Of a stretch of 64,000 nucleotides of DNA, positions 40,231 to 63,351 are shown in pieces (position 1 is the first letter of the stretch; each line of letters starts with the position of its first letter). The stretch spans positions 39,432,001 to 39,496,000 of the forward strand of contig OX597828.1 of the NCBI GenBank assembly GCA_951406725.2, written 5' to 3'. This stretch comes from Octopus vulgaris. Lineage: Eukaryota. Below the pieces are notes generated by a model. It had not been told where the DNA came from. It saw only the letters and a program-made list of their open reading frames with translations, and did no database searches. Position numbers and translations under genes: made by a program.

Positions 40231-40266
40231 TTGCGCCAAAGTTTAAAACTTTAATTTATATATGAA

Positions 40267-40355
40267 GAGTTATCTGCTCTTACATTCCTAGCACCTGATT
40301 TAATTTCTGTAGTACATTTTCCGACAAAATACATCGTATTGTGCAGCAGGTGAGT
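40267..40355 (+). promoter_or_regulatory. Module 1: 23-mer (40267-40289) + donor CAG|GTGAGT (GT at 40350)
   Basis: Exact GAGTTATCTGCTCTTACATTCCT; upstream part occupied by SINEs. Confidence 0.6.
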
Positions 40356-40827
40356 GGAAATTCATTTACGTTTGATCAGAGACGTTACAAAAGGATAAAA
40401 ACTATTCTGTAGACAAAATTTTCTTTAGTCTATCTACCTATTGATTGAATTGATCACCCCCAAAATATTTTCCTTCCCTGTTACCTAAAATCCTAGCCAC
40501 ACCACTCAATCTGTTTAAACCAAGCATTGGCAAACTTTTTAGAGAACCGGTCCGCATGAGTCATGGTCCGTCATCAGGTGGGCCACACTATTAAAAAAAA
40601 AAGATTCAAGGTAATTTTTCAAAAAGTTTCACGGGCTGCAGATTGCCCATTACTGGTTTAAACTTTCATTTGAAATTTACATCTAATTTAATATTATGAT
40701 TTGCAAGTTATGCTCCACACTTGTTCCCCTAATATCATTTAATAGGACTTTAATGTGTAAGATACATGGCTAATGAGGTAATTCTGAGGCGTGGCTATTG
40801 CTTATTGAAACTTTTTATAGCACTTTC

Positions 40828-40926
40828 GAGTTATCTGCTCTTACATTCCTGACTCAATTTGTAAACATTCGTTCGAAATTTGCGCCAGAACACAAACGTA
40901 CGCAAAAATATATATTGCAGGTGAGT
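40828..40926 (+). promoter_or_regulatory. Module 2: 23-mer (40828-40850) + CAG|GTGAGT (40921)
   Basis: Exact motif; recent copy of module 3. Confidence 0.6.
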
Positions 40927-41745
40927 AGAGATTCAGTCACTTCTATTTAAGCCTTGATCACAAATTTGCTCGTAAATTCATAATAAATATAATTTTTGAT
41001 GCAATTTTGTGCGTCCATATTCAACTAATTGGGTTTTTTGTCTCTTAAAATGTCTACACAGTATGCATGGGTGCACGGGTTCTGCATACTGCAGGTAACA
41101 TGTCTTAAGATATTTAGGTGATTCGAGATTCACTGAGTCAATCGAACTAAATCACTTTGTAAAATCTGTATGAAAGAAGCGTATTACGAATTATCATCTG
41201 TAATATATTTCTTCCAAAAAGCTGGTATTGATCAAATATTTACGTGTTTCACATTGAGAGACGATATTTTATAAGTGCAATGTTCATATAAATCTCAATT
41301 TCCTTCGCGTTTTAATTGATTATACTATTTTATGCACTTGAAATACAACAGACCTGGTATCGAAGTTAAATCATTTAGCAATTCATATTGATTTAAAGAG
41401 AATTGTTTCCCTAATATCATTTAATAGGACTTTAATGTGTAAGATACATGAGTATATATTTGTTGGTTAACTAGAAATGACTTTTCTTTGATATCTAGTC
41501 ATTTGTATTTCAGTATCCAGATTTAACTTCAATTTTTAAAATTTAATGAAAATAGTCTTCTATGGATTATAACCGACTGTTTATTCTCCAATAAGCAGTA
41601 GTGATTTTATGTTTAGATATTATACACAGGCTCATGACTATATTTGATTCGTGCAATGTTAATGTAACATCTGGATTTCCTTGTCCGAAATTTAAAAATC
41701 TAGAACAATCCCTTATCCTTTATCTCAATAAGATGTTTTAAAATT

Positions 41746-41962
41746 TAAGGCGGCGTGCTGGCAGAAGCGTTAGCTTGCCGCACAAAATTCTTAGCGGCAT
41801 TTCGTCCGTCTTTACATTCTGAGTTCAAATTCCGCCGGGGTTGACTTTCCCTTTCATCCTTTCGGGGGCGATAAATAAAGTACCAGTTGAGTACTGGGAT
41901 TAATGTAATCGACTTACCCCATCCCCGAAATTGCTGGCTTTGCCCCAAAATTTGAAACCAAT
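41746..41962 (+). mobile_element. SINE family B
   Basis: Head, B-box and core. Confidence 0.85.
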
Positions 41963-42295
41963 ATGACGTTTTAAATCTGATGTGGAATTGGTGTATATTC
42001 CTCATAAGCTTTTCTGTGGGGAAATAGAGTGTTGTGTTCAACTGCGAACCGTCTGGTTTTTCTTAGAAAAAAATTTCCTATCCTGAAAAATACCTCCTTA
42101 CTAAAACAAGTTATTATTATTTCTTTACATATATAAAAAAAAAAAAAACTCAGATGTAAAGTATGTTTGGTATTTTTCTCATATGGGTTGACAAAGACAT
42201 GTAGTACATTCGTTTTCTATACGAGGCGGTACCATGGCTAATGAGGTAATTCTGAGGCGTGGCTATTGCTTATTGAAACTTTTTATAGCACTTTC

Positions 42296-42390
42296 GAGTT
42301 ATCTGCTCTTACATTCCTGACTCAATTTGTAAACATTCGTTCGAAATTTGCGCCAGAACACATACGCAAAAATATATATTGCAGGTGAGT
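42296..42390 (+). promoter_or_regulatory. Module 3: 23-mer (42296-42318) + CAG|GTGAGT (42385)
   Basis: Exact motif. Confidence 0.6.
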
Positions 42391-44638
42391 AGAGATTCAG
42401 TCACTTCTATTTCAGCCTTGATCACAAATTTGCTCGTAAATTCATAATAAATATAACTTTTAATGCAATTTTGTGCGTCTATATTCAACTAATTGGGTTT
42501 TTTTGTCTCTTAAAATGTCTACACAGTATGCATGGGTGCACGGGTTCTGCATACTGCAGGTAGCATGTCTTAAGATATTTAGGTGATTCGAGATTCACTG
42601 AGTCAATCGAACTAAATCACTTTGTAAAATCTGTATGAAAGAAGCGTATTACGAATTATCATCTGTAATATATTTCTTCCAAAAAGCTGGTATTGATCAA
42701 ATATTTACGTGTTTCACATTGAGAGACGATATTTTATAAGTGCAATGTTCATATAAATCTCAATTTCCTTCGCGTTTTAATTGATTATACTATTTTATGC
42801 ACTTGAAATACAACAGACCTGGTATCGACCTTAAATCATTTAGCAATTCATATCGATTTAAAGAGAATTTCGTCTGAGGGTTCTAAGAAGTTTCAGTAGA
42901 AAATCGTTAGTGTTTGATAAAGTTCTTCCATAGTGTTCATACAAATTTAATTTCATTATGTTATGAAATTAATTTGTAAATGCAACGATGTAGTCACAGT
43001 TAAAAAGGTTTAATTGCTTCCTAACTATAATTAAATCTTTCATCTTTTACGTGTTTCGGTCATTAGACAGCAGCCATGTTGTGGACCACCTTAAAAACTT
43101 CAATCAAATAAATCGACACTGGTACTTATTTTTGAAGCCTAAGATTTATGCTCTTTTGCCTAACCGCTAAGTTACAGGGACGTAAACAACCAAGCGGTGG
43201 TGAGGGACATAATTTCAGCAAGTTTAAAGTTATGGATGATGGGTTAAATATTTAAAAAAATAAAACCTTGTATATTGTAATATTTGCGACTGGGTAATCA
43301 TTACAAATATCATGGTGGGGTGACCACATGCGTTCACACGCGCACGCACATACGTGTGTGTGTGTGTGTCTGTCTGTCTCTACCAGCGCTTGACAAACAG
43401 TGTTGGTTTATTTACGTCATCGTAATTTTGCGGTTCAGCAAAAGAGAATAAGTACGTCGACTCGGAGCTATAATAGAAGTTATAATAGAAGACGCCAGAG
43501 CCGGTTTTAAGCCAATTAGATTTGTTCCAATTGGACCCTGCCCCAAGAGAGGGCCCCGCGCACCCGCTCAAGCGGAGGACACTGTGATGAATTTTTAGTA
43601 TAGCATTGTGGCTAATGGTCCTCAATGCGTTTTGGCTGGGCCTGGCGTATTACACGAAGCATAAAACATCAATCTTCAGCTTTTGTAGAGTAGAGGACCC
43701 TACTGACAAATCTCTGAACCCCGTACTTCCAAGCGCCGGCCCTGGAAGACACTTGCTCAAGATGCCGCGCAGTAGAATTGAACCCAGCACCACAAGTTTG
43801 AGAAGCAACCTTCTTAACCACACAGTGACATTTATGCTTGTATATGTTTTCTATTTTAAAAAATGCTGTGCTGTCATTTTTGAAAGTTATTTATAAGCTT
43901 TATTAATTAAAAAACAACAATATAATTTTGCACGCAGATGGAAAACGTCTGTTCATTGTAATAATACGCCAGCTGATAAGGCTGTGTCTCCGGACATTAT
44001 TCACGGAGTCATTCCCTATTCATTGAGGATACGATCCTACGCCGAGTAAACACTTCTATCCGTACTTTTTGGTAGACATTCGCATCATGTAAATATATAT
44101 AGCGCCATGATTGACCGCTAAATCCACAAGTTTTTTTTTTTCTTTCATTCTCTCTCTGTTTATTTCATCGTATTCCTTTCTGTTGAAGAGCGTAGGCTCG
44201 AAACGTAAAAGGCTTTCTCACTTGCTCGAGCATCAAATTAATACACCCACTTGTTGTTTATACACCTGTCTTCGTCTTTTGTTTTCCTGTAAATTTCAAC
44301 TATATATATATAAATACAGATGCGCGCGCACACACACACACATACAATCTGCAATTGAAATCGGTATTTCAAAAGGTTGTGGTATGTCAGGAGACTTGAA
44401 ATCTAGATAGGATGCCTGTGACAGAAGGTAAACGGGAACCAGGAAGTGTTGTTAAACTGGACGGTGTATTAAGCCTGGTTTTGTTTTATTTAAATTCAGA
44501 AAATTGAAATATCAATAAAAGTTAGCTCTGATTCAAATGAATTATTTTGAGATATTTATCCAGCACTTACCACTGTTGTGCGAAGCGAGAATGGATTGCA
44601 TGTATCGTATAAGTTTATAAAGACATCAAATATTTGAA

Positions 44639-44719
44639 GAGTTATCTGCTCTTACATTCCTGACTGTAAACATTTGTTTAAAATCTGCAGCAAAATAACA
44701 TCAAATGTTACAGGTAAGT
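44639..44719 (+). promoter_or_regulatory. Module 4: 23-mer (44639-44661) + CAG|GTAAGT (44714)
   Basis: Exact motif; upstream GAAGCGAGAATGGATTG block. Confidence 0.6.
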
Positions 44720-45755
44720 GGTGATTCATTTATCTTTGATTAAACGTCATAAAATTGACGATTAAATTATAATTACTTATAACATATGGCCTACTTTTGC
44801 ATCTCTATTTTCACTTAGCACGATAATTTTCTTTCTGTTAAATCATTTTCTACACCACCTGTATATTATGTGATTGTGCGGGTGTCCACATTTGATCAAC
44901 AACAGATAACTTCACTCTGGTATTTAGGTATTTGAATTTCAATGCGACAATTTAATTTCACCTTTTCATAAAACTGTACGCAAAAGACTACATTTGAAGA
45001 CACAGAATTATTACCAATTACGTGCGTTTTCTAATAACTAATACTGAACAAATATTTATATACATATCAATGATATGCATATCGATTTTTCAGTTCAATG
45101 TTGACAAAAACTTAATTGGTTTTTTTTTTAGATTTAATTCCCTCTATTATTTGATACATTTGTGAAATGACATCTGGAACTGAAAATAACCATACGTTTC
45201 AGAAAAGGAACTTTAAATAACTCGGTATTTCTTTTACTATTGTTTATTGAAAATTAACTTGAATATCTTAAGAAATTAGTCTGCGTACGTTTTTCACGTA
45301 GAAACATTTTATTGCTTCCTATTGTTTTGTGGATGCAATCAAATTTTATAAATGTTGTTTTAGAAATATGGTTTAGAGCGGTGTTTCTCTAACTATCTGA
45401 TGTGGCATACCAGCATTTTTTTCGATGTGCCTGGGACCGGTAATATTTCTTGGTAATATTGATTTATACCAGAAACAATATAGATTTTGCCATGAGGTTT
45501 GTGCGCTTATGTTTTAAAACTTAGTCAAGAGGGACGAGTTTTGCCTATGGCCTTCAGAGATACTCTGAGAAAAGTGAGGTGAATACAGTTGTAGTAATGT
45601 ATACAGTTTGGGTTGGTTATGTATGATGTAATGTCTTAAGAGTTGACATTGAATATCAATTACCGCAAGAAGGTTTGAAAAAGAAAAAAAAATCTATACA
45701 CGCTTGTTGCTCTAGTCACGAACTGGATGAGAAGTTCATAAAGTGTTATATATTG

Positions 45756-46056
45756 AGTGGGCAGTCTCAAAAGGCTGCCTGATCCCACGAAGGTACTCAA
45801 TGGGCAGTCTCAAAAGGCTGCCTCATCCCACGAAGGTACTCAGTGGGCAGTCTCAAAAGGCTGCCTCATCCCACGAAGGTACTCAGTGGGCAGTCTCAAA
45901 AGGCTGCCTGATCCCACGAAGGTACTCAGTGGGCAGTCTCAAAAGGCTGCCTGATCCCACGAAGGTACTCAGTGGGCAGTCTCAAAAGGCTACTTGATCC
46001 CACGAAGGTACTCAGTGGGCAGTCTCAAAAGGCTGCCTCATCCCACGAAGGTGCTC
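45756..46056. repeat. 7 x 43-bp minisatellite AGTGGGCAGTCTCAAAAGGCTGCCTGATCCCACGAAGGTACTC
   Basis: Unit starts at 45756, 45799, 45842, 45885, 45928, 45971 and 46014. Confidence 0.97.
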
Positions 46057-47394
46057 CTTGTCTAATCAAGGTTCGGACGGTACATAAAAGAGCTTTTCTT
46101 CCTATATCCTGTGCTAAAGAGTAGCCTGACCCTAGAGAAAGTGCAATGGAAATCGATGCGTCAAGAATTTTTATCCTTTGGTCTGTAGCCTTCACCAAAT
46201 CCTCACAATATAGAAGAAACCCGTATCGTGTTGGGTTTGGGGAAATTTTATCTAGTTACCGGTCAATTACAGAGTGTGATGAGAGAACGGAAGCCCTTTT
46301 ACATGTAGGTTGACAAAAAGCACTGAATTGTTTTAATTTTATGTTTTATTGATATCGCAGGGATTCAGTTACTTCTGTTTAAACCAGGATTCGGCGAAGT
46401 GGCCAATATTGACTCATGGGTCTTTATGTACCTGTCCAACGGCTCGGTAAATACCTGAAACGATTTGGGGCATTAAGGATGCTAAATAATTAGTGAACTG
46501 AATCTGGTGATTTAAGGTTAATACCATGGAGCCTTAAAACTTTTGGAGATTTAGTTAGTTTTTTTCTATATCTTCAGTAGAGAATATTACGTTTGAGAGA
46601 ATGTCACAAAATATGTTTGACCGTTTCACGAAAAGAAAAATTCTGAAATTACAGTGAAGCCTTCGTTTACGAATAGTTTGTTCTGTTGTGGAAACAATAA
46701 CATATATAAGCGTTTTGTATATTATGCTATGTAACGTATTTGTACGTTGTACTAAAGGAAAACCGTTACGTATTTAGTTGGGAAGCAGTTTATATGAAGT
46801 TATAAAAAATATGCTAACCATAAAACTTGTGTATTTATTCAAATAAAATATATTTAGCTTTTTGATGGATAGTTATTGGTTGCTGAAGTTCGGTGTGATA
46901 ATTCAATGAATCATGAGACAAAATAATAGAATATCTTCACTTTATGTAAATATGTATGCATCTGAGAGAGTGAATGAGTGTGTATGTCTATGTGCGTGTG
47001 TGTGAATCTGTGTTTATGTATGTGTGCAGATATATACAGGTGTTTATTTCCATATATGTACTTAGGCGTGTTCATCTACGTGTGTGTGTGTTTGTAAAAT
47101 GACAAGTGTTTTACATCTAGTTGGCTAACCTTTGTTTATAATGATTATGCACCACGTGATAGTACAGACATCCAAAGGAGAAACCCACTCACTTGGCCAT
47201 TGCCATATATGGTAGTACTCACGTTGCTACGGAAAGCTTGTACGCTTATACCTCCAGCATGCAGTTGTACGGCAAAAAGAAAAGAAAAATTGAAACGAGC
47301 GCGGTAGAATATTTCGTTAACGCCCAACCGGATATCACCGACCACTGATGTGTGAAGTGAAAATACAATGTATATACCATAGACGCTAACAATG

Positions 47395-47474
47395 GCTCTA
47401 ACATTTCTGAATCGATACGTAATCATTTATTGTCAGTTTCTCACTGAACACATCAAATCATATTACAGGTGAGT
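47395..47474 (+). promoter_or_regulatory. Module 5 (degenerate): half motif GCTCTAACATTTCT + CAG|GTGAGT (47469)
   Basis: Upstream CTGATGTGTGAAG block and downstream GAACACATCAAATCATAT shared with module 13; the GATA half is missing. Confidence 0.45.
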
Positions 47475-48059
47475 GATGATAACTAGATCATGGTTTAAAA
47501 CTATTAAAAAAATTCAAGTCTAGTTTATGATTACATATAACACGTTCTCTACTTTTACGTATCTGTTTGCATCAACCTAACAGGGCATTTTCTTTCTACT
47601 TTATAATTCTCAATGCGGTTTATATATTGTTTATGTTGCTGTGTGAGTGTATTCGTTTTGATAAGCTACAGAATACAATTTCTCTGCTATTTTTGACTTT
47701 TAGATTTTAATGAGTCGATTTAACTTCAATCCATAAAATTTGCTGGCAAAGTGAATTCTAGATACAATACAAACTGCATGCGAATATATAAAATTATAAC
47801 TATTTTCAGTTGACTCTAGTGTCCCACAACGTTCAGTTTCTATCTCCCGTCCTCTTCCTTCTAAACACAAAGGACTTGTTGCCATATTCAACAGCCCCTA
47901 TGCTTATGCAAACGACACAGCCCTTTACTCATCTCTAACCTTCCTTAACTATGCATCATCCACACGCCAAATTTGCATTGAGCATAAGCGGAGACCCTAA
48001 AGGCATCCTGCTGTAAGATCGTGGCCAACCTTTTCGTTTTTAACAGTAAAATCTCAAGC

Positions 48060-48165
48060 GCTACTCGTATAAAGAAAACACTAGCACGCAGCAACCCTCA
48101 ACTGGAGCCCTCATAGTCGCTCCAAATTACGGACCTCAATATCATTGAAAATCTCTCCTGATGAA
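48060..48165 (+). mobile_element. Possible Tc1 transposase remnant
   Basis: ...TDLNIIENL resembles the SPDLNPIENLW motif. Confidence 0.35.
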
Positions 48166-48695
48166 AGAATATTTTTAGCATAGATTGTACTTTAGTTTTC
48201 AAGGCCAGAAAATATTTCACTTCCCGACAACGGTTGACATTCTCTCTGCAACGCTCCTCTGGAATGTTTGCAGTCATGTATAAAGCTTGTATATATGTCG
48301 CAATGTAATTTTTGAAGTTATTTGTGTTTTACGAATTAAACAAGACAAAAATGTTCTGCATATAGTTTGCAAACTTTTCTATATAGTCTCCAGTTGATAA
48401 GGCAGCTCCCCACGTATTATCCATCGGATAACAGTGGTGATTGAATTAACACCCAATGTGAAATTTAGACTGGGAGTTTGCGACCGTAAATCTACTATAG
48501 GAAGTTAATATCTGAGAGGAGCAGTTCACGGGGGTGGCGTGTCAGGATTAATATCGATTGAATCATACAATTGTACGATTAATAAAATTTATCTCATCTC
48601 AAAGTCAATTATTGAGTTTTATTGACCTATCACAAACTATTGATTTGTGAAGCGAAAATGGAATGCGGAAATCAAATTGCTTAGCAACAGTCTAC

Positions 48696-48773
48696 AAGTT
48701 ATCTGCTCTTACATTCCTAACCTGTTTTGTAATCACTTATTGTAAATCGGCAGGTGGACGAATTCAGGTGAGT
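48696..48773 (+). promoter_or_regulatory. Module 6: 23-mer (1 mismatch, 48696-48718) + CAG|GTGAGT (48768)
   Basis: AAGTTATCTGCTCTTACATTCCT; upstream TGTGAAGCGAAAATGGAATG. Confidence 0.6.
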
Positions 48774-48958
48774 GGAGTTTCGTTCAACATTCTACAGAGT
48801 TTCAGTCTGAAATTTAAGATTAGTTTATAATTTCATATAACTTGCTCTCCTCATTTTGTATATCTACTTTCACCTTACAGGTTAATTTCATTTCTTCTTA
48901 AATAATTTTTTTTATGCAATCTATGGATTGTTTATGGCCTGTGAGTGTACACGTGTTG

Positions 48959-48992
48959 ATCTGCTCTTACATTCCTAACTTGTTTTGTAATC
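48959..48992 (+). repeat. Module 7: partial local re-copy of the module 6 motif
   Basis: ATCTGCTCTTACATTCCTAACTTGTTTTGTAATC versus 48701-48734. Confidence 0.75.
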
Positions 48993-50149
48993 TAGCTGAG
49001 TGGACTGTAGCAGCGTCAAATAAAGTGTCTTGCTCAAGGACAGTGTATTTTCAATGTGAGAGAATATTTTTCACAACTGTTCATAGAAAATATAAATTAA
49101 CCCTAAACTAAACTAATTCTTAACTAATCTGTAGCTGTGTTAGTATTTCGGTTTGTAATTTTCCGTTAATTTGTGAATGCAATTAGTTTATAAATTTTGA
49201 CTATTGAATTTTTCAAAATTCAAGATTTCTGTCTTTGCTTTATGGTTTATTCACAACAAATGTGTTACGTTTGATCTTCGCAGATCTTCTGCCTTATTTC
49301 AATTTCTATCAGTTAATGACTGCTGATGTATTCACGAAGAACAAAATGCATTTTTTTAAATATTAGTTAGCAAATGCGTACATTTTCATTTCGTGTGTTT
49401 TATTGTCTCTTTTTATAATATAATTATGGGAAGATATAAAGCTACACAGTATATGATTAACGTCTTTCTTTACCCATGTTTTGGTCAGTTACAGAATAGT
49501 CAATTGGGATCCAATAAGTGAATTTTAACTGCTTCACATTCTAAAATCTATATGAAAAGAGAATTCTATGACCTATAAGCATTTATGTTGTCTTTCCAAT
49601 AATTTGTGGTACAAAAATATTTAGATATTTCGCATTGGTTTACAATATTTTGTCGGTATACTGTCGATATCAATTTAGATTAAAGATGAGAAAATTTCTT
49701 TCATACTTGTCCTACAAATTTAAAGTGAACATTTTATCGGATGAATCAGTATTTGCATGTTCATTGTGTTACGGTCAGAAAAATTCCATTGTCTTCTGAG
49801 GTATAACTACGTGTCTAAACATTGTTTACAACATTTTGCAAAGAAGTGTTGAAAGCTATTTATATGCTTTAAATACAAGATCAATGTGAGTTTTGCATCT
49901 ATCTTACTAATATTTGTTTGTAGTGATTTTACTGAAGGCAGCCGTTACAGTGTATAGGGGCTCCCACCACTGAGCGACTTCTGTACATTCCGATAAACAG
50001 TCGCACCGTAGAGAGAGAATTGCCGCGACAGTCAGCACATCAAAACATTGCGTTACGCCCAACCTGAAATCTAAACCGGTTTCTAATAATCGTATTTTGT
50101 TCTTTTGTTTTGGGACTTGAGAGCAATGAGGTACCGTTAAACATGTCAG

Positions 50150-50330
50150 GCCTGATATAGTTTAAATCATAATGTTGTACTATGAATTAATTAATCATAT
50201 TTTAAAATCAATTATTATGAGGTATTCATCTATAATCGACAACTGATTTGTGAAGCGGGAATGGAATGTTTTATGTCATAGTTAAAGAAAGGCCTGTAGT
50301 TGTTGGTGAGTTATCTGCTCTTACATTCCT
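50150..50330 (+). promoter_or_regulatory. Module 8: GGCCTGATAT box, GGAATGGAATG, exact 23-mer (50308-50330); donor deleted
   Basis: Near-identical to module 9 except for a deletion removing CAGGTGAGT. Confidence 0.55.
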
Positions 50331-50518
50331 AACCCGTTTTGTAATCATTTATTCTAAATCGCTGTTTGTTCGAATCCAGTCTCTACGAACTTTTAGTCTG
50401 AAATTTAAGATTAATTTATGACACATTACTCATAACGTATTTTCCCTCTTTGTGTATCAGTTTTTATCTTACGGGATAATTATTTACTTATTAAATAATT
50501 TTCTACACAACGCATATA

Positions 50519-50871
50519 TTGGAGTAAAGATTGCTTGCCAACATAACATGGCAGTTCTGGGTTAGGACGAATGTTGCTGTAATTTAGCCCCAGGAGACAT
50601 CGTCTCCAGCTGGCTATACAACATGATCTGTGCCCTTATATTTTCAAACAAGGGAATCTAGCACCCCCGCTCAGCTCAAAACATATCATATCGACAACTG
50701 AAGTGCTTTGCAAAATGTTGTAAACAATGTTTAGATTCCCTTGTTCGAAAATATAAGGACAGATCATGTCGTATGGCCAGCCGGAGGCGATGTCTCCTGG
50801 GGCTAAATTACAGCAACATTCTTTCTAAACCAGGCCTGCCATGTTATGTTGGCAAACAATCTTTACTCCAA
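50519..50871. mobile_element. Long-TIR palindromic MITE (a fragment is also at ~25114-25227)
   Basis: TTGGAGTAAAGATTGCTTGCCAACATAACATGGCAG... / ...CTGCCATGTTATGTTGGCAAACAATCTTTACTCCAA; arms ~140 bp. Confidence 0.85.
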
Positions 50872-52040: not shown

Positions 52041-52387
52041 GGTCAAACTAAAGCGTTTGACCGGGGTCAGAGAAACAAAAAAAAAAGTGAATTTTCCGAG
52101 TCCTCTCCTCCACCCCTTTCGCGAGTGCGCATTTTTTTTGTCATATTCGTTTAGAGCAAGTTGTTTTAACCCTATTACACTATTTTTTTTTTTTTTTGTG
52201 CCCGGGTCAGACCCTCAGAGGCTTTCGGAAAATCACTATGTGAATTTTCCGAGGCCTTTCCCCCCACCCTCACTTTCGCGAGTGCGCATTTTTTTTTTGT
52301 CATATTCGTTTAGAGGAAGTTGTTTTCCACCTATTACACTATTTTTTGTTTTGTTTTTCTGACCGGGTCAAACACTTTAGTTTGACC
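52041..52387. mobile_element. MITE with GG...CC ends and 8-bp TSD (Merlin-like), with an internal tandem duplication
   Basis: TIR GGTCAAACTAAAGCGTTTGACC / GGTCAAACACTTTAGTTTGACC; TSD AAAATTTC / AAATTTTC; empty site in the paralogous unit at ~49690. Confidence 0.8.
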
Positions 52388-52640
52388 AAATTTTCTTTCC
52401 TATTTGTCCATACATATTTAAAGTGAACATTTTGTCGAATGAATCAGTATTTGTATGTTCATTGTGTTACCGTCAGGAAAATTCCATTGTCTTCTGAGGT
52501 ATAACTACGTGTCTAAACATTGTTTACAACATTTTGCAAAGAAGTGTTCAAACCTATTTATATGCTTTAAAAATAACAAGATCAGAGTGAGTTTTGCATC
52601 TATCTTACTAATGTTTGTAGTGACTTTACTGAAGTTAGTA

Positions 52641-52796
52641 AGGCTGCTGTGTGGTAAGTAGCTTGCTTACGAACCACATGGTTCCGGGTTCAGTCCAACT
52701 GCGTGGCACCTTGGGCAAGTGTCTTCTACTATAGCCTCGGGCCGACCAAAGCCTTGTGAGTGGATTTGGTGGACGGAAACTGAAAGAAGCCCGTCG

Positions 52797-52835
<39 letters not shown>

Positions 52836-53057
52836 GTTTGTGTTTGTATGTCTGTGTTCGTCCCCCCCCCCAACATCGCTTGACAACCGATGCTGGTGTG
52901 TTTACGTCCCCGTAACTTAGCGGTTCGGCAAAAAAGAGACCGATAGAATAAGTACTATGCTTACAAAGAATAAGTCCTGAGGTCGATTTGCTCGACTAAA
53001 AGCGGTGCTCCAGCATGGCCACAGTCAAATGACTGAAACAAATAAAAGAGTAAAGAG
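52641..53057 (+). mobile_element. SINE family A, apparently young
   Basis: Near-consensus with CpGs intact; absent from the paralogous unit at ~49935. Confidence 0.9.
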
Positions 53058-53291
53058 TATATACCCACTGAGACCACCGCTACAGTATATAGCGGCAACC
53101 ACCACTGAACGACTCTCGAACATTCTGATAAACAGTCGCAATGTACAGAGAAAATTGCCGAGACAACCAGTTCGTGAAAACATTGCGTGAAACCCAACCA
53201 GAAATCTAAACCGGATATTAGTAATCGTGTTTTTCTCTGTGTGTCTGTGTCAAATGAACTTGAGAGCAATGAGGTACCATTAAGCATGTCA

Positions 53292-53540
53292 GGCCTGATA
53301 TCGTTTAAATCATAATGTTGTACTATGAATTAAGTAATTATATATTGAAATCAATTATTACGAAGTATTCATCTATTATCGACAACTGATTTGTGAAGCG
53401 GGAATGGAATGATTTATGTCATAGTTAAAGAAAGGCCTGTAGTTTTTGGGTGAGTTATCTGCTCTTACATTCCTAACCCGTTTTGTAATCATTTATTCTA
53501 AATCGCTGTTTGTTCGAATCCAATCACGTAACAGGTGAGT
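53292..53540 (+). promoter_or_regulatory. Module 9: GGCCTGATAT box, GGAATGGAATG, 23-mer (53452-53474) + CAG|GTGAGT (53535)
   Basis: Exact motif. Confidence 0.6.
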
Positions 53541-53611
53541 GAAGCTTGGATCAAAACTCTACAAACGTTTTATTTGAAATTTAAGATAAATTTATAATTA
53601 CATATAACTTG

Positions 53612-53693
<82 letters not shown>

Positions 53694-53784
53694 CTCTGTC
53701 TTTCTCTTTTCACTTTGCAGGATAATTTGTTACTTCTTAAATAATTTTATGTACAGCCTATGTATTGTTTATATTGCTGTTTGG

Positions 53785-54214
53785 GGATCTTTTCGGTTTG
53801 AACGGCAGTTTTTTCTAGCGGTGTCATATGAAATTGTCACCCATAATTATGACCCTAGTATCGATCTATTGCATTTCAATCTGTTTTAGGGTTTAGGGTT
53901 AGTTAGGGTTAGGGGTGGGGGGAATGGTATCTTTTTTTCATCACAAATGTAAATAAACCCAATCTGTTTCATAAACGAGGGACATATTCATATGGCACAG
54001 AATGTTTTTTTAACTCAATGGATGTCATCGATTGGCTGAAATTGCAGAAATTGAAGAAAAAAAAACAGCAAATATCTTACAAACTATAGAATTTTCTCAA
54101 TAAAGCCAAGAGAAAAAGATGTTTTATAAACACATTCTACCAGTATACGAAGTTTTAAATTTTCTAGTTACCTAGAAATTATGTTAAAAACTGCCATTCA
54201 AACCGAAAAGATCC
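53785..54214. mobile_element. Merlin-like MITE
   Basis: TIR GGATCTTTTCGGTTTGAACGGCAGTTTTT; perfect 8-bp TSD CTGTTTGG. Confidence 0.88.
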
Positions 54215-54764
54215 CTGTTTGGTAAACGTGAGCAAATACTGATAAGTTTTCTTTAACTTCTAAATATTTTAATTTCAATGAGTCAAGTTAACTCCATCAG
54301 TTCATGAATTCTGTGTGCAAAGAGAATTGTATGCTAACTACTTATGAGTAAATAGAATTATGACCTACTTTGTGTTTCAGTATTTCATATCAAATCATAA
54401 TATATTGTCAATTCCGTGTCAATAAACATCTAAATATTCTAGAATTAAACGACTGTACTATATTATATATATTTGGAGAATGACAGATTAGGAAACATTT
54501 CTAACCATTTATTATTTGGTGTCTTCGATCTAAACTGAATTTCCTACCTGATTCTTACATGTTTCGGAAAAAAAATTTTCAATGTGATAGTTTTTTTTCT
54601 TCTTATTTTCACAGCTGTTCATAAAAAATATAAACTGAATCTCTCAGTAATCTAATCTGTGATTGTGTTGGTCTTTCGGTTGATAATTTTCCGTTGTTTT
54701 GTACACACAATCATTTTATAAACTTTGGTGAACGATAAATTAAAGAATTTTTCAAAGCTCAATA

Positions 54765-54989
54765 TAGTAATCCCTCACCATATCGCGATTCACCTATTGG
54801 GGTTTATTATTTAAACTTACGTCGATTCCTCCGTTGTGTTGTTTTGCATTAATAATAAAATAAATATATACAAATTATAGAAATAATTGTAAAAATACAG
54901 TACAGTACTGTTTCTACTTCGCCGATTTTCACCTATCGCGGGAGGAGGAGTTGGAATGTAACACCCGCGATAATAGAGGGATTACTGTA
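54765..54989. mobile_element. Tigger/pogo-like MITE
   Basis: TAGTAATCCCTC..TATCGCG / CGCGATAATAGAGGGATTACTGTA. Confidence 0.7.
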
Positions 54990-55693
54990 CTTCTGTTCTT
55001 GTTTGTATAATGGAATTGTAACTCAGGTATTAGCAGATACTTTCCCTTTACCTCCTCTTCGTCCATACCAATCTAATTTGACCGTCTTCCTAAATGAATG
55101 TGTATTTGTACAATCTTTGTGTTACCTTTAGGGAAATTTCCTAGTTTTCTGAGAACGTCTAGATTGTTTGAACTTTTTGTTCAAAATGCTGTAACGTAAT
55201 TTCTGAAAGTTATTTGTGTGTTTTTACTAATTTAAGAAGGCACAAAAGTTTTGCATCTCGCTTGCTAACGTATGTGATTATGTTCAAGTTGATAGGGTGG
55301 TTACTGAAGGCCTTAACCACTGAGCCGTTCACTACAATATGTAACAGTGACTACACTCAGCAGCTCTTGTACATTTGTACTTCTAAGAAACATTTTCATT
55401 ATGTACAGAAAACCGCAGTCGGAATCGATGCGTCAAAGTATACGTTAACCCCTAATTGAAAAGTAGCTTGGATACTTTGTTGAAATAACTTAACGGCAAA
55501 GAGATGTTGTTTAACTGGATGATGTGTTGGGTCCGTTGTAATTTTAATTAAAGTCGTAAAATTGTGATATTGCTAAAATTCATAACAGCGAATCAGAACT
55601 TCGGAGGTATTGACCAAACACCAACAACTGAAGTATGAAGCGATAATGGAATGCGTGTATTATGTGGGTTTAGAAAGGTTTGCAGTACTTGAT

Positions 55694-55716
55694 GAGTTAT
55701 CTGCTCTTACATTCCT
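55694..55716 (+). promoter_or_regulatory. Module 10: exact 23-mer; canonical downstream donor degenerate
   Basis: Upstream CTGAAGTATGAAGCGATAATGGAATG. Confidence 0.55.
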
Positions 55717-56163
55717 GTTTCAGTTTCAAAATATTTATTCTCAATCTCCGTAAGAACATATAGAATGAGCTATAAACACTTCAAACCACAGCTTTCTGAA
55801 ATCGAAGTGTAACTTATAATTAAATATTTTCACCGAAGAAGATATCTCCTTTCTCTTAGATAAATTTATGTACAACCCATCCCTTGCTTATGTGGATCTG
55901 TGACTTTACACGTTTTCTTCAACTCCAGATAACTTTTCTCTACTATTTTATATATTTGGATTTCAAGGAATAAATTTGGTGTCATAAAATCTGTATTAGA
56001 AAATATGCGTACTGTACATAAATATATGAAACTATAGCTGATTTTCTCGCTTTCAAAAGAACCAATATTAGCTAAGTCAAAAGACAATTTTGACCAAATA
56101 TTGATTTACAGTATTTTGCTACTTTAATATTGATAAAAAAAAAAATAAATAAATAAAAAAAAA

Positions 56164-56198
<35 letters not shown>

Positions 56199-56926
56199 GA
56201 TGTTCTAGAATTGATTAACTATGTATATGATACATATGTGGAATGACAGATCTTAATTGCCACTAATTATTTATCGATGTCTTCAGTCTCAAGAGTGCTC
56301 AGTACCCACTGTCTCTCAGATATCTCGGAAAGGGAATTTTAAATGATAGATTTTGTTTTCAACGTTGTTCATCAGAAATTCATATCGAACATCTTAGTAA
56401 ATTATTCGGGTAATTGCGTTAGTTTTTCGATTCTAATACCCCATTCTTAAGTAGAGGTAATTTATAAACTTAGGTGGAGACTTTGATATAAATAATTTTT
56501 CAAAGCTTGGTTTCTATTAATATATGTAAAAATATAAATAAACAAAATATTTAAACATTTCAAACTGAGTTACAATGTCGTTTTTCGGTGAATTGTTGAT
56601 ATAAATATAAGCATTATTAATTTGAGTTTCAGTAGGGAGTCGTAAATGTGTGAAAATTTCTTTCCTTTTTGTCCATACACTTTTAATTTCGCTCTCTTAC
56701 TAAATTCATTTGCAGTGTTACTGTTGTAGTACCACCTACTGTCTATACTTTGTATACAATATGGTGCAAAGTAATTATCTGCTTTACTAACGGCGAAAGT
56801 TAATTAAATAAATAAACCCTGTAAATAAAATAACAGTAGAAAGTGACTGGTCGACAGATTCTGTTCCCGCCTAACATAAAAGGAACTTCCCATCAAGGAG
56901 GTGTCATTAAAGTGGGCGGTACGTTA

Positions 56927-57125
56927 GGCTTGATATCATTTTAATGAAAGTCAGAAGAATCTGCTATAAATAAAAGTTACTTCATATTCAAATCGATTAT
57001 TGTGAGGTATTGATTCATCACCAAGTGTTTAGTAATTGACGAGTTATCTGCTCTTACATTCCTGAGTCGATCTGGAAACATTTATTCTAAATCTCCGAGA
57101 ACATCAAATTGTATCGTGGGTGAGT
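56927..57125 (+). promoter_or_regulatory. Module 11: GGCTTGATAT box, TATAAATA (56965), 23-mer (57041-57063), G|GTGAGT (57120)
   Basis: Exact motif; the GGAATG block is absent. Confidence 0.6.
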
Positions 57126-57903
57126 GGAAACTCGTGATTTTTCTTTTTTAAATTTTTTTATTTAAATTCCTCTGAAATTGAAAAATGATTTATAATTACT
57201 TGTAACCTATTCTCTAATTTTATGATAGTTATTTTTACCGGACAAAATAATTTCTTTTTCTTAAATACTTTTCTATACAACCTATGTATATTGTTTATGT
57301 GGCTGTGTGAATGCACATGTTCTGATCAACTGGAGGTAATTTTTGTTTTTCTGTAGATTTTAATGAATCAATTTAACTTCGTCCGTTCATATAATTTGTC
57401 AGCAAAGTAGGTATACTACTACATATATATTGAATTATAACCATTTATACGCTGTTTCTAATAACTCGCCAAATATGTCGATATCTCGTATCGAATGACA
57501 ATATTTTATCAATTCAATAATGTTCAAAAAAAAAAAAAAGAAGGAAAAAAGATTTAGCTATTCTAGAGTTAATTAACTAAATGTGCAGTCATTATTATGA
57601 GGTAAGAAATTTGTTTCCCAACCACATGGTTTCGGGTTCAGTTCCCTTGCAATCTGGATTTTATAGAGTTGATTGGCTAGAATCATGGGCAAGTTTCTTA
57701 TACTATGCTTCCGGGCCGACCAAATCTTTGTGTGTGAATTTAGTAAACTGCAAATGAAAGAAAACCGCCATGCGTGTGTGTGTGTGTGTGTTTCGCCTGA
57801 CAGCGAGTCTTTGTTTACGTCACCGTAATTAAGCAGTTCAGGAAGAGAGACCGATAGAATAAGTACCAAACTTTAAAAAAAGTTCTAGGGTCGATTTGTT
57901 AAT

Positions 57904-57937
<34 letters not shown>

Positions 57938-58153
57938 GCCTTCCTACTATATGCACAAGGCCTGAAATTATGGGGGAAGAGGTTAGTAGATTACATCGAG
58001 CCCCAGTGTTTCACTGGTACTTAATTTATCGACCCCGAAAGGATGAAAGGCAAAGTCTACCTCGGCGAAATTTAAACTCAGAATGTAGCGACGGGCGAAA
58101 TACCGTTAAGTATCTCATCTAGCGTGCTAACTATTCTGTCAGCTCGCCACCTT
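57938..58153 (-). mobile_element. SINE family B within (TAA)n
   Basis: Reverse-complement core TTTATCGACCCCGAAAGGATGAAAGGCAAAG. Confidence 0.85.
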
Positions 58154-58337
58154 AATAATAATAATAATAATAATAATCGCATCGTGTAAGAAAAATGCAT
58201 TTGGAAACGACGCCTCAATAAACAATTAACGCCCGACCGGTTCCTAGTTACTGTGACTCTGTTAAGAACTAAAATTGTCGTTTAAGAAGGCGGCATGTTG
58301 GCTGTGTGATATGTTTGTGTTTGTGTCATAAAATTGT

Positions 58338-58559
58338 TATAAATATAAGCTATTTTCTGTTCAGATCAATTACGAAGTATTGATCTATCACTACCATCTA
58401 AGGTATGGAAACAACAATACAAAGTATGTATTATAGATTAATAAAAGCTCGTAGTAGTTGATGAGTTATCTGCTCTTACATTCCTGTCTCTCTGACTCTC
58501 TCTCTCTGTAAACATTCTGAATTTCCGAGAGAGAACTTCATATCGTATTGCAGGTAAGT
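58338..58559 (+). promoter_or_regulatory. Module 12: TATAAATA (58338), 23-mer (58463-58485), CAG|GTAAGT (58554)
   Basis: Exact motif. Confidence 0.6.
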
Positions 58560-59084
58560 GAAGATTTATTCGTGTTTTTAAAGCGTTCCTCTGAAATTGT
58601 AGACCAATATATAATTACATATAACTTATTTTTCATTTTTGTGTATTTTTTTTCAGTTAACAAGATTGTTTCATTTTCTTATGATTCCCTATACAAATGT
58701 TTGTGTAGTATTATTGTATGAGTGTAAATGTTTTGATCAACGCAAGACAACTTTTCTTTGATGCTTAGACATTTGAGTGAATTTTGTCATCACTTCAGAA
58801 TAATTTGTATGAAGAGGCAATTAAATATGAACTACATCTTGTCAATTTAATGTTGATATAGAAAAAAAATCATGGTACAATGTTATTCATTCGCGAAATG
58901 TAAGAGCTATAATCTTACCTTTATTGTCGCCGTCTAAAAAGGATTTGGTATTTCTTTCTGTCGTATCTGAAAGGGAATTTTAAATGCGATTTCAAGATTG
59001 TTCATAGAAAAATGGAATTGAACATCCAAATACATTAATCTGTGTAGGTCGGGCAGTATTTCGGTTAAAATTTTTCTTATTTTC

Positions 59085-59117
<33 letters not shown>

Positions 59118-59152
59118 GACACATATATATATATATATGAATATATATATAA

Positions 59153-59202
<50 letters not shown>

Positions 59203-59342
59203 CCGATTTTCTGAGTACCTCATTTCTTCTAATATATATATGTATGTATATATATATATATATATATATTAGTAAAAACGGTAAGATAACAAAACAAAGA
59301 AAGAGACCTCAATATTATGTAAATATATATATATGTACACAC

Positions 59343-59373
<31 letters not shown>

Positions 59374-59396
59374 TATGTATACATACACATATATTC

Positions 59397-59428
<32 letters not shown>

Positions 59429-59470
59429 TTTAACCGCAATACTGTCCGACCCACAATATATATATATACA
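59085..59470. repeat. Compound (TA)n/(CA)n microsatellite region
   Basis: Direct inspection. Confidence 0.9.
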
Positions 59471-59725
59471 TTTGATACGATCAATTTATAAACTTTGTTG
59501 TAGAATATGCGGTAAATAGTTTATCAAACATGAAATAAATAATTTATGAAAGCTCCAAATTTCTTTTATTTGATTACGGTTAAATCAAAAGAAAGGAGTT
59601 ATGCCTAATTTCTTTTTAGACCTACGTTATTTCGGTCATTCGAACCAGGTTATTAGCAAGAGTAAATTTTTGAAGGGAACGCGAGTGCCAGAACGCTTGT
59701 AATCTCGCGTGCGAGCTGTTGTTGG

Positions 59726-60350
59726 GCCTGACATCGTTTTAATTAAAATGAGAAAATATTTCTACTATAAATATATATAGTGGGATCTTTTCGGTTTGAA
59801 CGGCAGTTTTTAACATAATTTTTAGGTAACTAAAAATTTTTTAACTTCGTATACTGGTAGAATGTGTTTATAAAACATCTTTTTCTCTTGGCTTTATTGA
59901 GAAAATTCTATAGTTTGTAAGATATTTGTTGTTTTTTTCTTCAATTTCTGCAATTTTAACCAATCAATGATGTCCATTGAGGTAAAAAAAAAAAACATTC
60001 TGTGCCGTATGAATATGTCCCTCGTTTAAGAAACAGATTGGGTTTATTTACATTTGTGAAGAAAAAAAGATTGAAATGCAATAGATCGATACTAGGGTCA
60101 TAATTATGGGTGACAATTTCATATGACACCTAGAAAAAACTGCCGTTCAAACTAAAAAGATCCTTATAGTGAGCTCGACAACTACTGACGTGTGAAATAT
60201 GGAATGCGAGAGAAAGAGAGAGAGAGGGGGTATGTTTTAACAAAGGCTTTCAGTCGTTCATTAGTTATCTGCTCCTGCATTCCTGCTTCGATCTTTTAAG
60301 ATTTATTCTCAATCTCCAGCAGAACACATCAAATCATATCACAGGTGAGT
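59726..60350 (+). promoter_or_regulatory. Module 13: GGCCTGACAT box, TATAAATA (59766), MITE insertion, variant motif TAGTTATCTGCTCCTGCATTCCT (60262-60284), CAG|GTGAGT (60345)
   Basis: 3 mismatches; TTATCT and RCATTCCT are kept. Confidence 0.55.
59783..60163. mobile_element. Merlin-like MITE, same family as 53785 in opposite orientation
   Basis: Same TIR; TSD ATATAGTG / TTATAGTG. Confidence 0.88.
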
Positions 60351-61191
60351 GGGGATTCATTTATCTTTTTAAAACATTCTTCTGAAATTGAAGACTATTT
60401 CAAAATTACAAATAAGCTATTCTCTACATTTGTGTGTAGAGTTTCTTCCCCTAAATAAACTTCTTTATAACCTATGGCTTGTTAATTTGGATGTGTGAGT
60501 ACGAATGTTTTCAACTCCAGATAACTTTTCTTTGATATTTACATATCTGCATTTTAACGAGTCGATTTAACTTCATCACTTCATAAAATCTATATGTAAA
60601 GAAAAAAATGTAGGCGAGCTGCGTGTAGATGTATAGAATTATAAGAAATTTTATTCCTTCACAAAACTAGTATTAACCAAATTTTATATTGATTAATCCG
60701 AAAATCAGTATTTACTAAACTTTTTACAATTGATTGGTAATATTTTGTTCATTCGTTATTGATAAAAATCTGGATTTTATAGAGTTGATTGGTTAGATTC
60801 ATGTTGCATTTCTTCCAACATTCGAAGCACTTCAAATTTTCACCAGATTATTTCCAAGAAATACATAATAAAGAAGTTATATCAAAGAAAATTTTTTTTA
60901 AAAAAGTGGTGGAAGTTTGAAATACTTCAAGTGGTTGGAATAAATTTAACAAGATCCATTGATTATGCTATTCGATATATTTGTTGAATGCCGGATTTGG
61001 TATTATTGATTGCGATTTATGAATTTGATATCTTCATCTCAGGAGTATTCAGAACCTCAGACGTCTCGGATAATGATTTTAAAAGTGGTGGGATTTCTTT
61101 CGGAGAAAATTTAAATTGAACGTCTTTATCACTTTATAAACATTTGTGTATTTTTCACGGTTCAAATTTGTGTATCTTCATGTAGTTTTTC

Positions 61192-61594
61192 CAGGGACGT
61201 GCCGCCTGGGTAGTTAAGGCAGGCGGAGCCTACCCTACATAAAATAGATCGATAGTAACATTTTCCTTTTATGGCAAAATACGCACATAATTCAATTAAA
61301 TTATGAAGGTTACCCTACTTTGCATAAAATGCTTTTTTTTTCTTTCTGTAGATTAGGTAGGTATAATTCGCCCCTGCCTCTCAATTTCAGTATGAAAACT
61401 ACGTACAGTACTGCTGTAGTACATGTGCTGCGTACATTACTACAACGTTTTCTTTATGTGCTATAAAGGCAGAAGTAATTCTGCCTCCAACTCAGTCGCG
61501 CGACTGTTTCGCTTTTTTTTCTTTCTTTTGCGTGTTTTACTATATAAACGTCACCAACTGCCTACCCTGAGTAATTACTGACAGCACATGCCTG
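61192..61594. mobile_element. hAT-like MITE
   Basis: CAGGGACGTGC / GCACATGCCTG ends; 8-bp TSD AGTTTTTC / ATTTTTTC. Confidence 0.6.
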
Positions 61595-62072
61595 ATTTTT
61601 TCAGAGCCTAAATTTGTGTTAACCAACATTGTAGATCTAATAGGCAAAATATCAATATATTTGAAACTGACAGGTTGTACGCTCTTGACATATATCTAGA
61701 CTAGACTAATTTAAGTTTCAGCAGGGAGTCGTAAATGTGAGAAAAATTATTTCAGCCTTGTAAAAAAAATTTATTTGACCGTTTTACTAAAATTCATCTG
61801 TAGTTGTATATACTCTTAGGAAGGTTTCATTGTTTTCTGGGTACAACCAGCCTAATAAACTTTGTAAACAACGTTGTGCAAAGTAATTGTCGAAAGCAAA
61901 TTGTATGCTTTACAAATTACAAAAATAAAGAAAACTATTCGCACTGCAGTAGTAAAAGGCTAATTTTCAGATTGTGTTAGCACCCAGCCCGTACTCTCGA
62001 TCGGATACTAGTAACGTGAATCTGGTTAAAGAACATAAACCCACAAATGCTGTTAAGCTGGGATGCATGTTT

Positions 62073-62319
62073 GGCCTGATATAATTTTAATGGAAATCAG
62101 AAAATTTTGCTATAAATACAAGTCATCTCGGATTCGAATGAATAAGATATTGATTATTCACCAACTTCTGACGTGTGGAGCGAGAATGGAATGTATGTAT
62201 CATGTACGTTAACAAAAGCCTTTAGTACTTGACGAGTTATCTGCTCTTACATTTCTGAATCTCTGTAAGCATTTACTTTAAATCTGTGAGAATAACATCC
62301 AGTCATGTCGGAGGTAAGT
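62073..62319 (+). promoter_or_regulatory. Module 14: GGCCTGATAT box, TATAAATA (62111), GAATGGAATG, 23-mer (1 mismatch, 62234-62256), GAG|GTAAGT (62314)
   Basis: Most complete module. Confidence 0.62.
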
Positions 62320-63074
62320 AGAGATTCATCCATTTTTTATTTCCTCAGAAATTGAAGATAATTATATACTTCACTTTTGTGTATCTGTTTTCACCTTATA
62401 GGATAGTTTGCTCTTAGATAATTTTCTGTACACTCTGTTTATGTGACTGCACGTTTCGATCAATTATAGATAACTTTCCTCTGCTATTTGGACATCTGGG
62501 TTTCAATGAGTGAATTTAACTCCATCTCATCATAAGTCCTGTATGCATAGGCAGTTACATATGAACTACATTTTATCAATTCTGTGCTGATAAAAATCTA
62601 GCTTCTCTAAATTTGAATGATTATACTATCGTTGGAGTTCGAGTCACAAACTGGAAGGAAAGTTAATCAGATATTCTGTGCTAGCTGATAAGGATATTTC
62701 TCGAGGTTGTACCCACGAAGCACTTCATAACATGGGGTGTTAGATCGGACGGCGTGACGGTCCTGGAAAATATTTCTGAATAGCCTTTGTCTCCCGGTTA
62801 GAATAAATTATAGTTGTGAGGATAAGTCACCTCTATTGAACACATTTGTTCACTTTCTGGTGGCGATCACCAGTTTTTACGCTGTATAAAAAAATAAGCT
62901 GCTTCTTTCACTATTTATCTCCCCTTAATTTTAGTTCCTTTTTTTATATAACTAAATTGCAGTGGCAATCAGAGCATCAAGAAATTATATTTTTTTCAAC
63001 CAAAGACCTAACTGAAATGCTTGCGACATTTTATTCAATCAGTTATTGTTAGATCTTGATCAATTGCTAATTAC

Positions 63075-63351
63075 GGAGGTATTACGTTGAGAATGGAATG
63101 TAAATTTCATGACTCAGAAATATAACCGGAGTTGTCTCCCGTACTTTCAAGGTAATTGAAAACTATTTTTTTTTATTCTTTTAACTTATCTGTACCTTGT
63201 ATTTCAAATTGTTCGAAAAAGGCTGAATATATCTACAGAACAATGTTATTTCTTAGCGTAGAACGTTCGTTACATAATTATAACAGGTTGCAGATAAATA
63301 GCGTTTTTTGTCGGCAGTACGATATGAAAAGTTATTTCCCCTTACATTCTT
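63075..63351 (+). other. Module 15 (degenerate): GAGGTATT..GAGAATGGAATG and AAGTTATTTCCCCTTACATTCTT (63329-63351)
   Basis: About 5 mismatches to the 23-mer; no clear donor. Confidence 0.35.

Follow-up and report, generated by a model that had tools for sequence, protein, structure and literature searches.

In variable-first-exon clusters such as protocadherin-alpha, UGT1A and Ugt2, homologous units stand in tandem and in one orientation, each having a splice donor and a conserved element that binds protein (CTCF sites in the case of protocadherin-alpha), and their exons, which are long, coding and in one frame, are spliced to a constant region (PMC8494205 and PMC2819257, in the parts available). 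Selection on splice sites has been described for enhancer-associated long non-coding RNAs (lncRNAs), and mouse Blustr acts on Sfmbt2 (PMC6884709, in the parts available); such spliced RNAs are non-coding, conserve their splice signals rather than the RNA body, carry a promoter-proximal donor and act in cis on neighbours. Here we analyse an array of non-coding modules, built around a near-invariant 23-nucleotide sequence (the 23-mer) and mostly followed by a splice donor, at positions 40267 to 63351 of a 64,000-nucleotide stretch of Octopus vulgaris DNA (assembly GCA_951406725.2, contig OX597828.1, positions 39,432,001 to 39,496,000, forward strand; hereafter the window).

Judged by its sequence, the array resembles spliced enhancer-lncRNAs in each of these respects, its transcription and splicing being putative and its cis action on neighbours a candidate property only; it is unlike Blustr in comprising about 13 paralogous tandem units with a near-invariant 23-mer. 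It also has the tandem, one-orientation arrangement of the protocadherin and UGT1A clusters, with 13 modules on the + strand and a donor in 11. Unlike those clusters, its exons are non-coding, with stops in all frames and mixed donor phases, every unit carries a branch-like block of its own, and a constant region was not identified. The locus may work like a spliced enhancer-lncRNA or a multi-promoter array.

Several short non-coding first exons, mostly unrelated in sequence, serve each of BDNF, NOS1, NR3C1 and CYP19A1; the array is like these genes in that short non-coding first exons could feed one coding exon, and unlike them in that its modules are paralogues with one shared motif. In the lncRNAs Cyrano and NORAD a short site for a small RNA or a protein is conserved, and the array likewise holds a near-invariant site of about 23 nt in otherwise drifting non-coding sequence, although no strong partner was found for it and its pairing with miR-1 is ordinary. 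We found no description of the locus or the motif in the literature searched, including the available parts of PMC13282606 and PMC9699675, and the motif words are absent from the available supplements of the latter.

The array is a local tandem amplification

An earlier examination of the window from its letters (the sequence-only reading) had listed 12 copies of the 23-mer with up to three mismatches, all on the + strand. Each lies where it was placed (Table 1), and 100 shuffles gave none. Partial copies are present at 48954 (four mismatches) and 63329 (five mismatches), and the copy at 47395 lacks the motif's 5' half; the site at 63329 resembles the genome-wide motif described below more than it does a full unit. 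No copy occurs in the first 40 kb, as had been observed, and none in the 150 kb past the window. The 11 donors of the form GT(A/G)AGT that had been listed are likewise present, 49-70 nt past the motif, where the background of GGTRAGT is 0.5% per 22-nt band, as are the four TATAAATA words.

The units had been described as homologous and heavily diverged, with no conserved open reading frame (ORF). This stands, with the correction that they are head-to-tail duplicates of about 1.9 kb, homologous along their whole length and interrupted by dispersed repeats; in their distal 1.4 kb neither a block nor an ORF is conserved, and no poly(A) signal keeps a fixed place. Two pairs are recent duplicates (40828/42296, 98% identical over 641 nt; 50308/53452, 87% over 449 nt), and the copy at 48954 is a short local re-duplication of the motif of module 6. 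Pairwise flank identity is otherwise 0.39-0.68, and about 11 copies are independent. The 11-copy set used for conservation omits 40828 and 50308, as recent duplicates, together with 48954, 63129 and 63329. The tree of copies is star-like, with end branches of 0.14-0.7 for the non-recent copies, which points to an old burst of duplication.

Across the 2.8-Gb genome, exact 21-mers (10/10) and exact 17-mers (11/11) of the motif fall in the array, as do 9/9 matches to a 600-nt module; when three mismatches are allowed, eight matches lie outside the array, against seven for a control. A profile of the modules, searched against 214 kb (the window and selected loci), gave 14 matches at E < 1e-5 among the 18 listed, all in the array. 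Because copies with shared flanks are absent outside the array, the 23-mer is not the end of a dispersed transposon, an identity that the sequence-only reading had named as one that would undo its proposal. The unit is specific to this locus, and the array is a local tandem amplification of about a dozen copies rather than a mobile element.

Conservation is concentrated in three short blocks

With a dozen copies diverged by 35-50%, the array amounts to a natural mutagenesis experiment. Whereas 3858 of 5296 flank letters match the consensus (73%), the 23-mer reaches 215/222 (97%, over 21 motif columns), the donor 67/70 (96%) and a branch-like block, ATTACATATAAC, lying 60-90 nt past the donor, 94/102 (92%). 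Column permutation gave 0/5000 for the motif, p = 0.008 for the donor and p = 0.002 for the branch-like block as the best of all 12-column windows. The alignment therefore bears out the earlier claim that selection keeps motif and donor. Judged by this pattern, the 23-mer, the donor and the branch-like block are under purifying selection, and most of each copy has drifted; the TATA box, the acceptor and the RNA body appear to have been dropped.

The donor letters vary as those of splice donors do, with CAG before the GT in 9/11 copies and A or G at +3. In eight of the 11 donor-bearing copies the branch-like word ends 62-87 nt past the donor, and five of these eight have a YAG at 103-115 nt; the block lies 30-40 nt upstream of an ancestral pyrimidine-rich acceptor that is intact in 4/11 donor-bearing copies. 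A strong acceptor lies 88-186 nt past the donor in 5/11 copies against a background of 21%, a difference that is not significant alone. The earlier statement that no acceptor is conserved upstream is correct: just 5' of the motif 47/66 letters match the consensus, the flank level, and an acceptor there is rejected. To be added to that reading is the ancestral acceptor past the donor, which survives in some copies.

The motif is perfect in two copies without a donor and in three without a TATA box. Since copies 7 and 9, respectively copies 1-3, keep it, the motif needs neither. Identity stops within 5 nt of the motif edge in 34/36 pairs of copies, and edges this sharp count against gene conversion, which we rejected as a source of the conservation. 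Every homologous proximal region found (the 14 profile matches) carries the motif or part of it, and the sample is therefore free of selection bias in this respect.

The sequence-only reading had also proposed an order of TATA promoter, non-coding first exon and donor, and part of this survives, in that the ancestral unit has the look of a + strand gene's 5' end. An initiator-like TCAA, TCGA or TGAA stands about 30 nt past TATAAATA in three copies, which fits an ancestral TATA promoter. T exceeds A in the units by a skew of +0.073, compared with +0.098 in nearby + strand introns and -0.061 in a - strand intron. The part that does not survive is the TATA box of present-day modules: TATAAATA is a canonical TATA in only 4/11 copies, in one of which an insertion has cut it off, and it is not conserved above the flanks.

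The 23-mer may combine a dispersed motif with a TEAD-type site

The first 15 nt of the 23-mer fit a degenerate motif, GAGTTATYTNCYCTT, that occurs genome-wide at unrelated sites on both strands (for instance L017-L050), about threefold over control. The form GAGTTATYTN{1,3}CYCTT has 907 matches, evenly divided between the strands, against 312 for the reversed control; the 18-mer form, in which the 15-nt motif is extended by ACA, has 15 matches outside the array against one; and for the 16-mer of the array itself, one mismatch being allowed, the counts are 67 and 43. At 34 dispersed sites the flanks are mostly unrelated, one trio sharing a repeat, and a donor lies downstream in 1/34. Recurrence on both strands, in unrelated flanks and almost always without a donor, fits a DNA-binding site. 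The array has in this way brought to light a 15-nt motif, so far uncharacterised, in which the octopus genome is enriched.

The last 8 nt of the 23-mer fit a TEAD site and contain CATTCC, the TEAD consensus (PMC4546604, in the parts available); the A-to-G change in the copy at 60262 leaves CATTCC in place. A genome-wide composite of the dispersed motif and a TEAD site was considered and did not convince. At one independent locus (L075, G000:C18:30199841), the dispersed motif abuts a perfect TEAD-type site and has a partial inverted copy about 45 nt upstream. A promoter bias of the dispersed motif was also set aside, as its sites are CpG-rich relative to their local region and the effect disappears against 20 control stretches. 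THAP proteins remain a weak lead as binders and were rejected: the core of THAP1 is TxxxGGCA (PMC2879526, in the parts available), and the array motif misses one of its invariant bases.

A bank of locally spliced regulatory units is tentatively favoured

The reading that we prefer, though with a little less than even confidence, is that the array consists of duplicated promoter, first-exon and short-intron cassettes that would produce locally spliced non-coding RNAs and act as a cis-regulatory bank. The 5' end of an ancestral + strand polymerase II gene, with a TATA promoter, a non-coding first exon, a first intron of about 105-115 nt and the start of exon 2, would have been amplified head to tail as a piece of about 1.9 kb in an old burst, followed by two later duplications. 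The 23-mer may be a composite protein-binding DNA site, made of the dispersed 15-nt motif and an overlapping site of TEAD type, through which each copy would be licensed for transcription. Donor and branch-like block would mark the two ends of the first splicing step of a short intron; this promoter-proximal intron, spliced locally, would boost transcription of its copy, and the RNA body would be non-coding and expendable. In the weakest step, the bank of spliced enhancer-like units would regulate its neighbours in cis, most plausibly the Bcl-2-family and BH3-only-like genes described below.

Each unit offers a branch-like block and, frequently, an acceptor for an intron of about 105-115 nt, which favours local splicing over a shared exon. 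The independence of the motif from TATA box and donor likewise favours independent, locally spliced regulatory units, and the units share with spliced enhancer-lncRNAs the conservation of splice signals above that of an RNA body without an ORF. If transcribed, they would offer a rare set of paralogues among spliced non-coding regulatory units and a direct test of whether function resides in the act of splicing and not in the RNA.

Several observations weigh against this interpretation. The upstream GGCCTGATAT and TATA boxes, which the sequence-only reading had pointed out, match their consensus at 72/94 and 62/78 (0.79) letters, no better than the flanks, and the same holds for the acceptor (103/128; 0.80), an initiator-like word (44/60; 0.73) and an upstream reverse TEAD-type site (48/63; 0.76); the putative start position is therefore blurred. 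The strand skew goes back to a single ancestral unit, substitutions after duplication being strand-symmetric. CpG-rich sequence holds no excess of the dispersed motif (0.63 against 0.66 in 20 control stretches). In 10/10 array copies three positions are invariant at which the dispersed motif is free to vary (p about 3e-5), a result left unaccounted for by the two-site model, and exact abutment to a TEAD-type site occurs at only three places elsewhere, against six at four other spacings. The branch-like block could instead be a transcription-factor site, and the cis targets are putative.

Genomic setting

Two convergent genes, an ARNT-family gene on the + strand and a Bcl-2-family gene on the - strand, flank the array, which fills the gap that separates them. 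The observed/expected ratio of CpG (CpG o/e) is 0.14-0.35 in the ARNT-family gene, rises to 0.73-1.23 in the array and is back at 0.21-0.37 between about 63.6 and 69 kb; set against 20 control stretches, whose values are bimodal, the array level is that of unmethylated genome background. Mollusc DNA is methylated in gene bodies, the basis on which CpG depletion is read here as marking a gene body, and from its CpG level we infer that the array lies outside both flanking gene bodies. The single-copy stretch 63400-64000 is probably the far 3' end of the Bcl-2-family transcript. It holds a 95-aa ORF on the - strand (63606-63893), for which protein relatives were looked for and none found.

The Bcl-2-family gene is divergent, has a TATA box and carries its intron after a GGW motif; only three relatives of its protein were found, one labelled O. 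sinensis. A gene 23 kb past the window encodes proteins identical to records labelled Octopus vulgaris. Head to head with the Bcl-2-family gene stands the next + strand gene, which begins some 19 kb beyond the window; its first exon is non-coding, CpG-rich and furnished with donors. Its BH3-only-like protein has two BH3-like motifs (LRLLGDSF and LQLIADKF), is 95% identical to an O. bimaculoides record and has no Pfam or PDB match; its Atlas feature neighbours are the BMF, NOXA, BIM and BIK clusters at 0.77-0.84, which is a lead only. The promoter region of this gene contains CACGTGA words and a GAGTTATC word (L002:8852) that is motif-like with one base missing. It shows no wider homology to the modules, the module profile finding nothing there at E up to 5. 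The animal has programmed senescence, and to connect this with the Bcl-2-family and BH3-only-like genes next to the array is speculation.

Alternative explanations

The idea that the modules splice to a shared gene body beyond the window fared poorly in its simple form: the next gene is antisense and the next + strand gene has its own first exon, so that no promoter-less downstream gene body is available, and each unit has a local branch-like block. The genomic layout accordingly counts against all donors splicing to one downstream constant region. A version with one exon common to all donors, which could be the last unit's exon 2 (from 62402) or lie in the BH3-only-like gene, nevertheless competes best with the preferred reading, and we regard it as unlikely. 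It would explain why the donor is retained in 11/13 aligned modules when the ancestral AG is kept in only 4/11 donor-bearing ones, why neither a poly(A) signal nor an exon-2 block is conserved, and why the units share one orientation and the last has a full acceptor. The BH3-only-like gene, 20-45 kb downstream, has its ORF in one exon behind non-coding 5' exons and contains the only two + strand acceptors with at least 12/13 pyrimidines between 62.3 and 87.6 kb; the GAGTTATC word in its promoter may be counted on the same side. The conserved branch-like block with nearby YAGs speaks for local splicing instead, the mixed phase from motif to donor leaves no shared frame, and transcripts would have to cross an antisense gene whose CpG depletion reaches down to about 63.6 kb. 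The BH3-only-like gene moreover has its own first exon, with donors, that the module model does not match.

A bolder form of this explanation is a long shot: about 11 cell-type-selective first exons would splice across the antisense Bcl-2-family gene into the BH3-only-like coding exon. If true, the firing of any module would yield both antisense through a survival gene and a death protein, a many-input apoptosis switch made from tandem non-coding cassettes.

Marginally less probable than the shared exon is that the 23-mer acts in RNA, so that paralogous spliced lncRNAs, or one multi-exon lncRNA, would offer a dozen protein or small-RNA sites. The motif has the length of a small-RNA site, sharp edges and a fixed sense relative to the donor, and it is invariant at positions that are free in the dispersed motif. 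It holds a perfect miR-1 seed match, and 14 consecutive target bases pair with the genome's own miR-1, whose hairpin (L016, G000:C13:72703197-72703272, - strand) scores over the cut-off of Rfam RF00103. That duplex is ordinary, however: at -14.1 kcal/mol it is matched or beaten by 6/19 other seed sites nearby, and it lacks extended 3' pairing. The combination of seed and extensive 3' pairing that marks a trigger of microRNA (miRNA) degradation is thus absent for miR-1, the sole miRNA compared. The genome holds no perfect complement of the 23-mer elsewhere, the motif is perfect in copies without a donor, and its 5' 15 nt recur genome-wide on both strands.

Quite improbable, in our view, is an enhancer or boundary array that works as DNA only, between the convergent genes and without splicing, the donor-like word being a second factor site. 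Such an array would suit the CpG-rich gap between two CpG-depleted gene bodies, the three generic motif sites at its edge, and a motif that outlasts the loss of donor or TATA box. The word, however, follows the splice-donor consensus, including A or G at +3, and is succeeded at intron-like distance by a branch-like block and an acceptor, and the CpG level is that of unmethylated background. A neutral relic, a decayed tandem duplication or transposon array whose motif was homogenised by gene conversion, is very improbable. In its favour, more than 95% of each unit evolves in neutral-like fashion with frequent insertions and deletions, four motif copies are damaged and two donors are lost. Against it, identity breaks off at the edges of the motif, conservation falls into three separate blocks, all 14 homologous proximal regions have the motif or part of it, and the unit is absent elsewhere in the genome.

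Other identities considered

A miRNA cluster was rejected, no shared hairpin appearing on either strand among the folds listed for up to 15 anchors, and no Rfam match. For box C/D snoRNAs, CTGA follows in 5/13 aligned copies, the C box is variable, the motif lies 5' of the donor, and again there was no Rfam match. Docking and selector pairing of the Dscam type gave a best duplex over 72 kb of -21.8, against -18.6 to -24.6 for eight shuffled motifs. An array of spliced-leader RNAs is contradicted by the 49-70 variable nt between motif and donor and, by eye, by the lack of a conserved U-rich Sm-type word after it. A coding exon or small ORF was dismissed as well: the ELSALTFL frame has three synonymous changes, but its third positions do not otherwise change, and neither stops nor phases are constant.

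Feature inventory and further observations

Table 1. Features of the array and its surroundings, in window coordinates except where a locus handle is given.
Feature	Position	Strand	Details
ARNT/BMAL-family bHLH-PAS gene, 3' exons	23154..31587	+	PAS exon near 23200; stop at 31587 by eye
Minisatellite, 29-33-bp unit	37250..39000		shortly upstream of the array; TTCCNGGAA and CAGGAAGT abundant
Module 1	40241..40431	+	exact 23-mer 40267-40289; donor CAG/GTGAGT 40350; dispersed repeat ending near 40249 replaces upstream part; downstream truncated
Module 2	40762..41008	+	exact 23-mer 40828; donor 40921; no TATA; recent duplicate of module 3
Module 3	42232..42472	+	exact 23-mer 42296; donor 42385; no TATA at the homologous place
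Module 4	44496..44820	+	exact 23-mer 44639; donor CAG/GTAAGT 44714; branch-like block 44772; acceptor-like TAG at donor +105 nt
Module 5	47299..47585	+	motif 5' half deleted; donor 47469; branch-like block 47530; ancestral acceptor retained at donor +115 nt
Module 6	48563..48881	+	reverse TEAD-type site 48659; 23-mer with 1 mismatch 48696; donor 48768; ancestral acceptor ends 48880
Partial re-duplication of module 6 motif (48954)	48911..49115	+	no donor
Module 7	50149..50451	+	GGCCTGATAT 50149; exact 23-mer 50308; donor lost in a ~30-nt deletion; recent duplicate of module 8
Module 8	53292..53721	+	GGCCTGATAT 53292; exact 23-mer 53452; donor 53535; branch-like block 53597; acceptor at donor +186 nt, behind TC microsatellite
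Module 9	55554..55827	+	reverse TEAD-type site 55647; exact 23-mer 55694; donor decayed
Module 10	56927..57230	+	box 56927; TATAAATA 56965; exact 23-mer 57041; donor TGG/GTGAGT 57120
Module 11	58326..58657	+	TATAAATA 58338; exact 23-mer 58463; donor CAG/GTAAGT 58554; branch-like block 58614; acceptor-like CAG at donor +103 nt
Module 12	59725..60450	+	box 59725; TATAAATA 59766; ~360-nt insert with terminal inverted repeats (59782-60140) between TATAAATA and 23-mer; 23-mer with 3 mismatches 60262; donor 60345
Module 13, most complete	62073..62402	+	GGCCTGATAT 62073; TATAAATA 62111; reverse TEAD-type site 62187; 23-mer with 1 mismatch 62234; donor GAG/GTAAGT 62314; acceptor ends 62401; first AATAAA at donor +487 nt
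Three degenerate matches to the genome-wide motif (62912, 63129, 63329)	62912..63351	+	edge of CpG-rich domain; no donors
Bcl-2-family gene, two exons	L002:1205-690 and L001:4002-3901	-	PF00452
BH3-only-like gene, single coding exon	L003:3612-3887	+	~23.6 kb past the window; encodes 79-91 aa

The minisatellite marks the start of the CpG-rich domain and holds 18 TTCCNGGAA words, against three in the other 212 kb, together with 18 CAGGAAGT words; these words resemble STAT and ETS sites. A young 43-bp tandem repeat lies inside the array at 45756-46056, with seven copies that are 96% identical. A small element with terminal inverted repeats is present in two inverted copies, 96% identical, at 53782-54215 and 59782-60140, the second of which parts the TATA box from the rest of module 12, the module whose full-length motif is the most damaged.

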